A stretch of 64,000 nucleotides of DNA, from NCBI GenBank assembly GCA_951406725.2, contig OX597825.1, forward strand, positions 80,972,001-81,036,000. Direction: 5' to 3'. Positions 38,701 through 61,459 of the stretch are shown here, in pieces. The position numbers were made by a program, and so were the translations under genes. This DNA comes from Octopus vulgaris (lineage: Eukaryota). The notes below the pieces were generated by a model. That model did no database searches, was not told where the DNA came from, and saw nothing but the letters and a program-made list of their open reading frames with translations. Numbering within the stretch: the stretch's first letter is position 1; each line of letters opens with the position of its first letter.

Positions 38701-40019
38701 GTACGTACGTACGTACACACGAACCCCTTCTTTTTCTTGCCATCATTTCCCCCTCTTTAATTTTTTTTGTATCTTTCCTATGACAAAAGACTAACTTCCG
38801 AAACGTGAGTACTCTTAAAACTTGTCCCTCCCGTGTGGTCTTTGTTCTGTGCTCAATTACACCACCCACTTTACACACATACACATACGCACGCGCGTAC
38901 CCCCCCAGCCTCACGCAATCTATATATACTTGAAGAAAGGTTTACAGGGTCATCAATACACATCTTCCTCGACGGAAAGACACCATATTTTATTCTTATA
39001 ATTGCGATTTGTTGTTGCTACTGCTGTTTGTTACTGTTGCCACACGGTCCTTTATATTCTCAAAATCATTTTGTCTTATATATATATATATTTATATATA
39101 TATATATATATATATGCAGACAATTTCAAATTATTCTTTGGAAATGAAAAAATTTATAAATCAACAAGTAATATGTCGATTTTTTTTAAAACAAAATTGT
39201 TCTATTGCTAAAAATTTCGTTCCTCTTCCGCTTCAACTGCAATTATAATACTATAAAGCATTATCTAACTATAAACTACAAACCCACACTTATATATTTA
39301 CCCTCTCAGACCGCCACTAAGTCCACCAAATTCCAGTGTTTAACTTTTTATAACTTATATCTTTGTTATATTTCACTTACGATATCGTCCTCTGCAGTGA
39401 AATACCTTCTATCGTCTGCTACAAATTCCTCCATTTTAACTCTGATATTTCTTAGTGTTAAACCTATTGACCGAGCTTACATCTATTTAAATTCATATCT
39501 TTTTTATTTCTCTCTCTTTCTCCCCTTATCTCTCTCTCCCCCCTCTCTCTCTCTGTTTATCTAGCTACTGCTTTATATCGTTCACTATTGATCCACTTAC
39601 TTAAATTACTTGTCTGTTCAGCGTCTCTTTTCCGCCATTTATTTTGTTGCTGTTGACACAAAGAGCCGTCTTCAAATCCAGCATTGCTGTTGATTTCTCT
39701 CGGATGTTGTTTACATTGTTTACATTAGTTCAAGTCAACCAGGCAAGGATTTAAGCTCAACACTTTTACTAACAACACGACTGTAACAGAAAGCGATCAG
39801 TTGTTTAAGCCGTTAATCTCAAACTTTTCTAATAACTATTTACATTAAATAGCATTAAGTCAGTGCTAAGTAGGCTTATTTGCCAAACACACTGTAGAAT
39901 TTTGGTCCATCGGCACTCGATCACTAGTGGCATTTAACTGTTTTACTGCCAATCATCCATTGAATTCATCAGCTATTTAAATCTTTGAGCAGAAACCTCG
40001 CTCTTTATCACTCGTGCTC

Positions 40020-40345
<326 letters not shown>

Positions 40346-40746
40346 CTATGCATGCATTTGCGTGTGTCCGTTAATTGTTTAAGTAAGTGAATATCTGCTT
40401 ATTTCATTATCTCAAGACTGCCAGCATACAATATTTTTATCTACATTACATACAAACACACACACAAACACAAACACACACACACGCACACACACACACA
40501 CACACACACAGATATACATATATTACATATCATATCTTCAGTATAGTTGTATATTTATTAATTATCTACCCTCCATTGATTGCTTGTCTGCCTAACAGTA
40601 TAACTACTTAATCTTAAGAATACCTATCTATCCATCCATCCATCCATCCATCAAATATAATATATTATAACATAATATAGGATATATATATTTATTATTA
40701 CTATTATTACTATATATATATATACATATATATATATATAGCAAAC

Positions 40747-41148
40747 ATGCGAAACGTGATAAGAACTAGCCACGAGCAGCGCCGGCGCATGAGTCTGGTG
40801 ACGAGCCCAAACAACCGACTGCCCAGCGCATCTTCCACACCAATTCCTCCAGAATTAACGAGTCGGCGCCACTCGCTGCATGGAGGGAATGTAGCCCCTG
40901 ACGATCCTCTTCTTACTCTGGCTAATAAACTAAACGTTAAGCGTGGCTCCAATAGTATCGTATCGACGACAGCTATGTCGAAGCTCAACCTCCGCAGACT
41001 TTCCGAAATCAGGATGCCAAATTCAGCGAAATTCCATTTCAAACGGATTACATCGGAATTGAAAACATGGAAGGTTATTGTAATCGTCTTGTTTATCTTT
41101 GTCTCGATAATCTTTGTCATTGTATATTCGGCTTATCGATATATTTGA
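40747..41148 (+). CDS. 133-aa tail-anchored single-pass membrane protein with four RRxS/KRxS motifs; C-terminal 57 aa phospholamban/sarcolipin-like
   Basis: Complex, visibly GC-richer ORF between (AT)n tracts; CAAAC-ATG start context just after an AG; hydrophobic segment V110-Y127; AATAAA at 41154-41159. Confidence 0.75.
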   Translation: MRNVIRTSHEQRRRMSLVTSPNNRLPSASSTPIPPELTSRRHSLHGGNVAPDDPLLTLANKLNVKRGSNSIVSTTAMSKLNLRRLSEIRMPNSAKFHFKRITSELKTWKVIVIVLFIFVSIIFVIVYSAYRYI

Positions 41149-41225
41149 CGGTGAATAAAGGGTTAGTCACCCACCTTTATTTTTGAGACTTATTAACTCA
41201 CAGCAATACATATTATATGTGTATA

Positions 41226-51479: not shown

Positions 51480-53890
51480 AACAACTTAATCATGATATAT
51501 AATGTTGCTCTTAGACAGATCTTAAGAAATAAAGGAAATGACCTAACAGCCTTAAGTAACCTCATTTATTCCACTGCTAAAGTTGTAACTGATCAATTAG
51601 AGATCCAGACGACAGAGAAAAGGACCAACCATGTCAATAGACCTCCGAAGTGGAAAGTAGCAATAAAAAAAAAGATCGCATCTCTGCGGGCGGATGTTTC
51701 AGTTCTTGCTTGAGGAGTAAATGTTAAGACAAAACGAGTTAGAAAAATCAAGAAAAAATATAAAATGAAAGATTTTTTATAAACTTTCCTGCAACCAAGG
51801 AAATAGTGAAACAACGAATACAATCGAAAGCCCAAAGGCTCAGAAGGTATGACAAAAGAATCAAATTTTATCGATGAAACAAGATATTCAAGATGGATGC
51901 AAAGAAATTTTATAGGGAAATTGGCAAAAGTAAGATAGAAGTGAAGGAGCCGCTAAGACTGAGGAAATGGAAGAGTTCTGGAAGAAGATATGGATTAACA
52001 AAACGAACAAAATGTTAAATCTGACTGGATAGAGCGTGAGAAAGTGAGACTGGATGAAGTTGAAGAACAGAAATGAAAGGCAACAGGAATAGAAGAGGTA
52101 AAATGTGTTCTTAGGAAGTTTTACAAATTGAAAAACCTAGGACTGGACCGGATTCCTAACTTCTGACTAAATTGTCTGACAGAAGTGCATCAAAATTTAG
52201 CTGCATCTCTGACTGATGTTACATAGAACCCAGAACAAATACCTGCTTGGCTGGCTGAAGGAATGATATACCTTCTACCAAAAACTGAAGACACAAAAAA
52301 AACCAAAGAGCTACTGACCGATAACATGTCCCAACACCACCTACAAGATCTTCACATCCATATTAACTGGACAGAGGTCTATCCTTCCACAAGCTCGAAA
52401 AGGCTGTAAAAAGAATTCTTATGGGTGCAAAGATCGATTACTCATGAGTAAAATGATTGTAGAGAACAGCCGGAGCAAAAAGAAAAGCTTGAGTATGACA
52501 TGGATAAGCGACAGGAAAGCGTTTGATAGTGTCCCACATAATTGGTTACTCAAGGCCCTTGAAATACATAAGATCTCTCCTGTCGTCTCCAAATTCTTAC
52601 AAGGTAGCATGGGCAAATAGAACACACGTCTCCTTCTAAACCCTTGTAATGGGATGAGCCAATCTAACAACATCAACATGAAGCGTGGCATCTTTCAATG
52701 TGGCTTCCTCTCCCCTTTACCCTTCTGCATGGCACTGATACCACTCTTAAAAGAACTAAATACCACCAGGTACAGATTGAAAGTTTATAATACGATAAGA
52801 AACCATCGGTTTTATATGGACGATCTGAAGCTGTTTGCTAGATATGATAAAGAGCTAGCAGGGTTGCTAACAACTGTTAAAGAATTCAGTAATGACATCA
52901 GGAAGAACTTTGGCCTTGATAGGTGTACTAAGGCAACTTTGTACGAGGCAAGCTCAGGCTAACAGCTTCCATTAAATTAGATACCGATGCTACCGTCAAG
53001 GAGCTTGACCTACAAGAAAATTACAAATACCTACTATTCTGCATGGAATTACCTGGTCAATTCCACCGTGACACCATCAAATTAAAAGATCAGGAAGAAT
53101 CATGGAGAAGGCTCAGCAAGGGTGACCTAAAAAAGAAGACTGAAAGCCTAATCGTCGCTGCCCAGGTCCAGACACTGAATACCAACTCAGTAGAAACGGA
53201 TATATACCACACATGTGCAACGAACCTCTGCAGAATGCGTGGGGAGGGGGCCGAAAGCGTGACTCACATTGTTAGTACTTGTGAAAGTCTGGCTCAGAAA
53301 GAGTACAAGCGCAGATACAAGTAGCGAAAAGCTTTCACTGGCTACTACACCGGAAGTATGGATACGAGGTAACGGGTGTTTGGTACCAACATATACCAGA
53401 AAAGGGGAAGGCAAAAATCCTCTGGGACTTTGACTTCTAGACAGACAATGTGTTAGAGCACCGAAGGCGGATATAGTAACCTTTAGGAGGGACAAACAAA
53501 AGTGGGTAATAATCGACGTAGCAGTACCAGGAGATTAACATGTTATCATAAATAAAAGAGAAAAGATTGATAAATATGGGAACCTGAGAATTGGGATCGC
53601 CACGATGTGGCAGCTACGTGAGTCAAATACAAAGGTTGTCCCTATTGTCACCGGAGCACCGGGTTCAATACCACCCAACCCAAAGAAACGTTTGGAAACT
53701 TTACAAATAACTTACAATCTTGATGTATTGTAAAAATCAGCATTACTTCGAACAGCACGCATACTGCATAAAGTCCGTCTGAGGTCCTTGTTGTGACTTG
53801 ACAAACAGTACAAACCCCAGGTAGACACAATAGCTTCAATCAACAAATGCACGATATTGGATACTGTGCAACATCTTAGATAATTATCAT
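51480..53890 (+). mobile_element. Dong/R4-clade non-LTR retrotransposon pseudogene (RT, zinc knuckle, restriction-like endonuclease)
   Basis: KAFDSVPHNW, RGIFQCGFLSPL, FYMDDLKLFA (~52813), FGLDRC, CRMRGEGAESVTHIVSTC, DIV..IIDVAVP..KIDKY..VVPIVTGA; many stops and frameshifts, internal deletion near 53035. Confidence 0.92.
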
Positions 53891-60480: not shown

Positions 60481-61459
60481 AGCACACAATTTGAACTACC
60501 TATTGCAGTTAACAAAAAAAAATTATGTCCACTTTTGGATTATTTTCGGTAAAAACTGTATTTCTTTCTACAAATTTCTGCCTTCTGTAAATCTCTTTCC
60601 TTCTATAAATATATTTTTCCCTTCAATAAATCTATTTATTTCTTCTTTAAATGTATTTCTTTATTCGATAAACGTTTTTCTCTCTTCTGTAAATATATGT
60701 CTCTCTTCTCAATCCATTTCTCTCTCCTGAAGTAACATCCTACTATCTTAAAAAAAAACAGCGACACATTGAACAATGTAGTCCAAAATACACTTAAGAA
60801 AAACGAAATGGCCATAACTGGAACATCTCATTAAGGCTTGACCTTACTCTAAACAACAGTTTAATTAAACTCGATGTGGTCAAACCGGAACCAAACGCTA
60901 TATACTGTTTTTACAAGGAACAAAAAAACTCATCTTTTCTTTTCACGTAGGACAACAAAGTCTACGTTTTCTTAAGAAAGTTATTACAATATAATATTGG
61001 CCATAACATGGGAAAGAAATTTCTTTGAAAGGGAAACCAATTATCTCAGCGCAAAATGAAAGGAAATGAAATACCATAGAAACAAATCTTATCGTTTTAT
61101 CTTTATATTTGATATCACTGTTATTTTGGTGGAAGCAGAGAAATATCACAATATTGCCATATGAGAGAAATAAAGAAAGATATTGAAGTCAATTTACTTA
61201 GAGGGAATTTACTTACAAAGGTATATACGGAATATATACATATATATGTGTGGGTGTGTGTCTGTATAGATGCATACCACATACACACTCATATATAGAA
61301 AGTAACGGATATTAGAATAGCAAAAAGGATATCAATGAAAAATATTAGCTCTATAATCATTGCAAGCAACATTACCACGGATATTGCAAGCGTAGCAAAG
61401 ATATAAAATATTGATAAAAGAAAAAGGAATATTAATACTGATGATGCTGTTGCTGTTGC

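Follow-up and report, generated by a model that had tools for sequence, protein, structure and literature searches.

We have identified a probable single-exon gene of Octopus vulgaris whose product is a predicted tail-anchored membrane protein of 133 amino acids. Searches of Pfam, NCBIfam, PDB and the ESM Atlas assigned it neither a family nor a name nor a structure. The ORF lies in the window (the whole stretch of 64,000 nucleotides that was analyzed) and is a real, conserved gene. Apparently, it encodes a lineage-restricted protein of known general design that has gone undescribed, and the gene may already bear an 'uncharacterized protein' label in annotations. Four basic-basic-x-Ser sites precede its C-terminal helix. 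We give a probability of about one half to the reading that the protein regulates a membrane transport protein and is released by kinases, and a link to the SERCA calcium pump is a fair hypothesis by analogy.

The original prediction had singled out this ORF as the only clearly protein-like one in the window, and no second host-gene-like ORF was identified in the 150 of 197 filtered window frames that were scanned. The locus is single-copy in the genome assembly (2.8 Gb, 227 contigs; locus on contig C12); among 13 further genome matches considered as paralogues (E 0.7-9.5), the four inspected were repeat-derived. An upstream in-frame stretch from 40681 has no Met and derives from a TA repeat, and an AATAAA occurs past the stop codon (41154-41159). 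RNA folding across the ORF was not unusually stable (z -0.12). Coordinates of the features are collected in Table 1.

Two full-length relatives with a shared start and end confirmed that the ORF is conserved and beyond chance. P0002 (129 aa, on a 668-kb ENA contig) is identical at 85 of 133 positions, including the first and last residues (E 1.4e-43 in a search of 5.8 billion sequences). P0003 is a 328-aa protein on a 2337-base Logan contig, and its 126-aa core is 64% identical to the octopus ORF product and 84% alike to P0002. Lengths thus span 126-133 aa, and indels among the relatives are found only in variable linkers. Invariant positions are gathered into blocks (Table 1), while the linkers between them keep 5/22, 7/20, 3/9 and 1/5 positions in the three sequences. 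Since parts are invariant while the sequences otherwise differ by a third, the protein likely does something that is selected for. The conservation statistics are thin because there are only three sequences, two of them close. No more distant relative was found in 1.84 billion representatives, where the other two of three matches (P0004 and P0005) were rejected as tandem-repeat proteins, and a profile search (A2) returned P0002 as the only relative among 3300 candidates. Metagenome matches L081 and L082 were also rejected, being 30% matches in GC-rich bacterial-type DNA with no comparable ORF.

Table 1 Features of the ORF and its flanks (window coordinates; invariance across three sequences)
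Feature	Position	Strand	Evidence or conservation
Single-exon ORF, tail-anchored membrane protein, 133 aa plus stop	40747..41148	+	Translation, relatives, single copy
Start context CAAACATG, A at -3	40742..40749	+	Same first Met in P0002 and P0003 core
Invariant N-terminal block, residues 1-17, site 1 RRRMS16L	40747..40797	+	17/17, 3 sequences
A>G, CAG>CGG, Q11R	40778	+	G in a single X8 contig (depth 11.5), A in X1 and X5; no cover from DNA
Site 2, RRHS43L (residues 40-44)	40864..40878	+	5/5 invariant
Site 3, [KR]RGS68N (residues 65-69)	40939..40953	+	4/5 invariant; K65 is R in both relatives
Invariant block 79-90, site 4 RRLS86EIRM, PLN-like stretch	40981..41016	+	12/12 invariant
Basic-aromatic juxtamembrane segment 96-109	41032..41073	+	11/15 over 96-110; T102, W108, K109 invariant
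Transmembrane helix 110-128	41074..41130	+	Hydropathy 3.15-3.28 in all three sequences
Short aromatic C-terminal tail SAYR[YF]I (residues 128-133)	41128..41145	+	5/6 invariant
Likely 3' UTR start	41149..41205	+	Resembles flank behind P0003 core

All four predicted phosphorylation motifs, at S16 (RRMS), S43 (RRHS), S68 (KRGS) and S86 (RRLS), are present in the translation and kept in both relatives. Shuffling residues 1-109 produced four [RK][RK]xS sites in 50 of 100,000 trials (p=0.0005). Of the 12 motif residues, 11 are invariant, vs 53 among the 97 remaining cytosolic ones (Fisher p=0.012, for three sequences of which two are 84% alike). A fifth, basic-basic-x-Thr site (T102) is found in two of the three. 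The octapeptide RRLSEIRM is invariant in 3/3 sequences, and RRxSxIxM, a motif picked post hoc, occurs once, in the ORF, among 1.42 million six-frame residues holding 446 RRxS. By its motif, RRLS86 fits the PKA consensus, and it lies on the N-terminal side of the helix. Ser86 is followed by an invariant Glu; at this +1 position PKA favors hydrophobic residues. The net charge of the N-terminal arm is +11 to +14.

The single C-terminal hydrophobic helix proposed for the protein was recovered, the best Kyte-Doolittle 19-mer being residues 110-128 (mean 3.24; next-best region 0.2). The protein ends five residues past the helix. The predicted layout is tail-anchored, with one C-terminal helix that would insert into the membrane, a short tail, and a basic N-terminus of 109 residues in the cytosol. 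In the structure model (mean pLDDT 59, pTM 0.25), only the helix is confident, with block means of pLDDT of 84-96 over residues 101-130. The rest is poor, including a long, low-confidence N-terminus and a helix predicted at low confidence over block 79-90. Invariance rises from 5/11 in residues 110-120 to 10/11 in 121-131, which suggests that the latter segment is conserved beyond the needs of a plain anchor; the conserved helix positions are not confined to a single face (p=0.95). Phospholamban (PLN) forms a homo-oligomer (pentamer), and a four-copy complex prediction for residues 79-133, in which the alignment was not used, scored 0.02 vs a mark of 0.32. A conserved protein, tail-anchored by prediction, with several kinase-consensus sites is the part of the original prediction that the analysis supported.

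Searches for a family were negative. Neither the full protein nor its last 57 residues nor the two relatives gave a PLN, sarcolipin (SLN) or TUNAR match in Pfam, and NCBIfam gave 0 families for the 3/3 sequences. The locus was not among 20 and 13 genome matches (E<=10) of the PF04272 and PF05366 models, for which only first-look candidates were scored, nor among 19 of the TUNAR model (PF21954; E<=10). HMMER filters hide weak matches, and the models compared were the Pfam regulin models, with no sarcolamban profile among them. Elsewhere in the genome, none of the 22 top PLN, SLN and TUNAR matches inspected, of 52, was a convincing regulin. PDB sequence matches contained no PLN or SLN chain; matches to poxvirus OPG140 and a VNAR (E 0.13-8) were rejected as chance. 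Foldseek found no PDB match at E<=0.001, and a VIA-align wide search, whose best Z was 5.9, was set aside as having found generic long helices. The ESM Atlas recognition score was 1677, under the 2300 typical of known families. Three arthropod clusters without names (112-128 aa) also scored 0.85-0.87 in the Atlas; they are possible distant counterparts and are treated as leads only. For the C-terminal part, the closest Atlas neighbour bearing a name was pTUNAR/BNLN (PF21954; 0.77), which shares the C-terminal helix; however, 0.77 is within the chance range and pTUNAR/BNLN is reported as vertebrate and 48-65 aa long. It is likewise described as a SERCA-binding peptide that does without xLFxxF (PMC8758570).

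We favor the regulator reading because of the full-length relatives, the conserved sites and the 10/11 invariance over residues 121-131. In the mechanism that we propose, segment 79-109, the outer half-helix and the aromatic tail would be the docking surface for a partner that shares the membrane with the protein. Cyclic-nucleotide-dependent phosphorylation (PKA/PKG type) at up to four serines would then neutralize the charge of the basic arm step by step and lift the effect, so that the response would be graded rather than on/off. Parallels would be PLN on SERCA and phospholemman (FXYD1) on the sodium pump, where several kinase sites are described as relieving pump inhibition (PMC7953255). 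Phospholemman, as presented there, also combines a single helix with several kinase sites, but it is a type I protein with its sites C-terminal to the helix, the reverse layout. The octopus protein has no FXYD motif before the helix, and its predicted topology is neither type I nor one with a cytosolic C-terminus. Several observations weigh against the regulator reading: LFxxF is absent, as are Asn, Asp and Gln from the last 26 residues; the relatives match the quoted PLN peptide beyond RRxS no better than chance can give; the spacing of Lys or Trp and Tyr is an ordinary one for a membrane interface; an invariant Glu follows Ser86, where PLN has the phosphorylated Thr17; at 133 aa, the protein is twice the length of the largest regulin, ALN (66 aa); and helix conservation has no single face.

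A phospho-dependent membrane adaptor or trafficking factor is a possible, if doubtful, alternative. Here the serines would be 14-3-3-type docking or sorting signals, pumps would not be regulated directly, and the role would resemble that of Calcyon/NSG proteins. The long low-confidence N-terminus with its short conserved islands around serines is consistent with such a role, as is the identity of the best Pfam match, Calcyon (PF06387; E 0.015 and 0.011), which covers the helix and Tyr-rich end. That match reaches only 15.8-16.2 bits vs a cut-off of 25, however, and neither relative matches the profile. The octopus protein moreover ends at profile position 108 of 180, leaving the C-terminal 72 positions missing and no domain after the helix.

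The ORF could instead be the final coding exon of a tail-anchored protein of greater length, with a splice at the AG (40740-40741) that lies 5 nt before the ATG; the 328-aa length of P0003 would agree with this. Words of the ORF were found in 24 sequencing runs, none recorded as RNA, and contigs of four of these (X1, X5, X8 and X16) were examined. One contig each from X1 and X8 spans the ORF and reads on past 40742 into the TA repeats on its flanks, and at the AG neither a joint nor a loose end is seen. The X5 contig covers 40763-41203, and X16 (76% read) left the ORF without real cover. The genome itself may come from X1. Four studies contributed 14 runs, RNA by guess, that contain 0.92-1.00 of the sampled words at 25-105 million letters each, and two other runs rich in these words have 2263 and 3828 million letters. 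As the contigs cross the ORF unspliced, it is probably a stand-alone gene; the contigs fit an unspliced coding exon, and with runs that are RNA by guess its transcription is putative. Against splicing also stand the TA repeat, rather than a pyrimidine tract, ahead of the AG and the onset of conservation exactly at Met1. The flanks of P0003 had no match as protein in the window (best E 0.8), and a Trp falls exactly at the stop position, as a gene call reading TGA as Trp would give. Back-translated, its 3' flank matches the DNA just past the octopus stop at 18 of 31 fixed positions (15 offsets tried); of 63,930 positions in the window, 11 score as high. Such flanks resemble the product of a gene call that read through a stop. 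A search for longer proteins, which is weak evidence, returned only P0003 among 334 candidates. We regard the last-exon explanation as improbable.

The substitution seen in X8 (Table 1) lies in a C-A-G context and alters Gln11, which is otherwise invariant. It would place an Arg at -5 of Ser16, creating RxRxxS, an Akt-type consensus that 0/3 sequences contain as encoded. Nine of the 14 runs share the 0.92 word share, and one substitution removes about as much (31 of 429 words); of these nine, the run whose contigs were examined is X8. A-to-G recoding is described as very common in squid (57,108 sites; PMC4384741). The change at 40778 is a candidate RNA edit (A-to-I recoding) or an allele, and an allele explains it equally well.

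Regulins bind the M2/M6/M9 groove of SERCA and change its activity, and the original prediction had assigned the protein to this family or to a convergent counterpart. As described in PMC8396278, regulins are tail-anchored. The same source gives Ser16, Thr17 and Asn34 as PLN positions, with PKA at Ser16 relieving PLN; it calls PLN Asn34 and SLN Asn11 critical, reports that SLN depends on its aromatic luminal tail, aligns a myoregulin Lys with the Asn and lists ALN, at 66 aa, as the largest regulin. Sarcolambans are reported to vary greatly in sequence, and a Trp in the outer half-helix is common to them and SLN (10.1101/2020.07.19.211243).

Much of the proposed likeness to PLN weakened when the relatives were included. 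The identity of 7/13 to the PLN peptide held for the peptide as quoted, but it falls to 5/13 in the relatives because Pro91 is Lys and Ala94 is Ser, and three of these five are the generic RRxS. Beyond RRxS, the relatives match the quoted peptide at 2/10 positions, for which chance is 9-15% (vs 0.1-0.4% for four). Of the motif RRxSxIxMP, RRxSxIxM persists in 3/3 sequences while Pro is Lys in both relatives. The suggestion that an internal start at Met77 (40975) gives a 57-aa peptide is not supported, with Leu at that position in both relatives and residues 1-17 invariant. The 31-66 aa size reported for regulin micropeptides is not matched by these proteins of 126-133 aa. A linker about 9 aa longer than in PLN had also been claimed; it is longer, but by 4 to 8 residues according to register, S86 lying 22, 23 and 26 residues from W108, K109 and V112 where the PLN Ser-to-Asn distance is given as 18.

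PLN and the octopus protein have in common the tail-anchored topology, an RRxS upstream of the helix and, in the quoted peptide, Ile at +2 and Met at +4. PLN differs in its length (52 aa vs 133), its one PKA site vs four, Thr17 in place of Glu, and an Asn34 that has no equivalent here; a profile match is also missing. LFxxF is absent from 3/3 sequences, as the original prediction had noted for LFxNF. The last 26 residues contain no Asn, Asp or Gln, and the position of PLN Asn34 and SLN Asn11 falls on the invariant K109 in one register and on W108 or V112 in the other two. From SLN and the sarcolambans come a short aromatic Arg-containing tail, a conserved Thr before the helix and a Lys at the helix start as likenesses. 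The SLN-like ends survived in part: the aromatic tail and the Thr of TSEL are kept, but the rest of TSEL is lost (TDDI, TNDI). The K109-Y127 distance of 18 residues equals the reported SLN Asn11-Tyr29 spacing. Lys or Trp and Tyr placed 18-20 residues apart are an ordinary membrane-interface pattern. T102-Y130 spans 28 residues vs 24 for SLN Thr5-Tyr29, so both SLN anchors need a 4-residue gap inside the helix and the two ends fit no gapless register. There is no outer half-helix Trp, and the cytosolic arm has 109 residues vs about 6. ALN and myoregulin resemble the protein in their unstructured cytosolic arm and C-terminal helix, and myoregulin also in the Lys modelled at the Asn position; in contrast, the octopus protein is twice as long as ALN, matches no Pfam family and has no LFxxF.

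Because LFxxF, the helix Asn, a gapless SLN register and Pfam matches are all missing, we do not file the protein as a regulin. A true but highly diverged homologue, sharing ancestry with PLN, SLN and sarcolamban and having gained an N-terminal extension, would have the same topology and could retain the invariant RRxSxIxM and T102, and sarcolambans are indeed reported to vary greatly (10.1101/2020.07.19.211243). Such common descent is very improbable, however, given those absences, including that of the outer half-helix Trp, the gap needed inside the helix, and the lack of PF04272 or PF05366 matches in hmmscan or the genome listing and of a PDB PLN or SLN chain. A chance or non-coding ORF, for which one could cite the absence of the exact protein from a 15-billion-sequence collection and the Atlas score of 1677 (below 2300), has a negligible likelihood beside two full-length relatives with indels confined to variable linkers.

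Under the regulator reading, SERCA is tentatively the likeliest single partner, by an analogy of topology only, and the protein would be a functional analogue of phospholamban rather than a family member. We take a gene on contig C25 (~25.94-25.96 Mb, minus strand, short exons; L024, L086, L087 and L089) to be of SERCA type, presumably with an intact M6 exon, and we take the sodium pump, PMCA and SPCA to be encoded in the genome as well, all assigned from motifs. Any of these four could be the target. A bolder version, which we consider doubtful, is that the protein is a phospholamban analogue that arose independently in cephalopods. It would brake SERCA under the control of a rheostat of four phosphorylation sites and end in a tail like that of sarcolipin, and A-to-I editing (Q11R) might retune it by adding the RxRxxS site.

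The surroundings of the gene are sparse. The window is rich in simple repeats. A scan of the 200 kb on either side, in which small exons could escape, identified no neighbouring host gene; it took in 120 candidates, picked by hand out of lists of 739 and 146, and gave one sub-threshold match. Within the window, a match to UNC-93 (60946-61188) was sub-threshold and missing from the genome-wide list and was rejected. With transposon and simple-repeat frames only, C12:80772001-81236000 (~460 kb) is a gene-poor stretch or a very large intron. Vertebrate PLN and SLN lie in an SLC35F neighbourhood, and the SLC35F model had no match anywhere in the octopus genome. Upstream of the ORF, beyond a 330-base ATCT array, a non-repetitive segment with a single genome match (39560-40015) is a candidate promoter or 5' exon. 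Repeat-type elements include a transposase fragment (PF01359; 26500-26790, minus strand), reverse-transcriptase fragments (PF00078, under the cut-off; 52318-52959, plus strand) and 184-base tandem units at 1483-1967 and 14324-14691, likely copies of a short interspersed repeat. Adjoining the 184-base tandem element, a U6 snRNA match (14744-14839, minus strand; 93 bits, model 1-105 over 96 bases, ~9 bases short) is probably a pseudogene copy.

No SERCA-regulating peptide from molluscs was found in the open-access literature. If the octopus protein does regulate SERCA in the manner of a phospholamban analogue, the literature searched holds no earlier example of such a regulator from animals other than vertebrates and arthropods. 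The protein would then make it possible to test how cAMP controls calcium handling in the muscle or neurons of cephalopods, and evolution would have converged on the design of phospholamban. Otherwise, it would be one more small membrane protein restricted to a lineage, though one whose multi-site switch is unusually clear.
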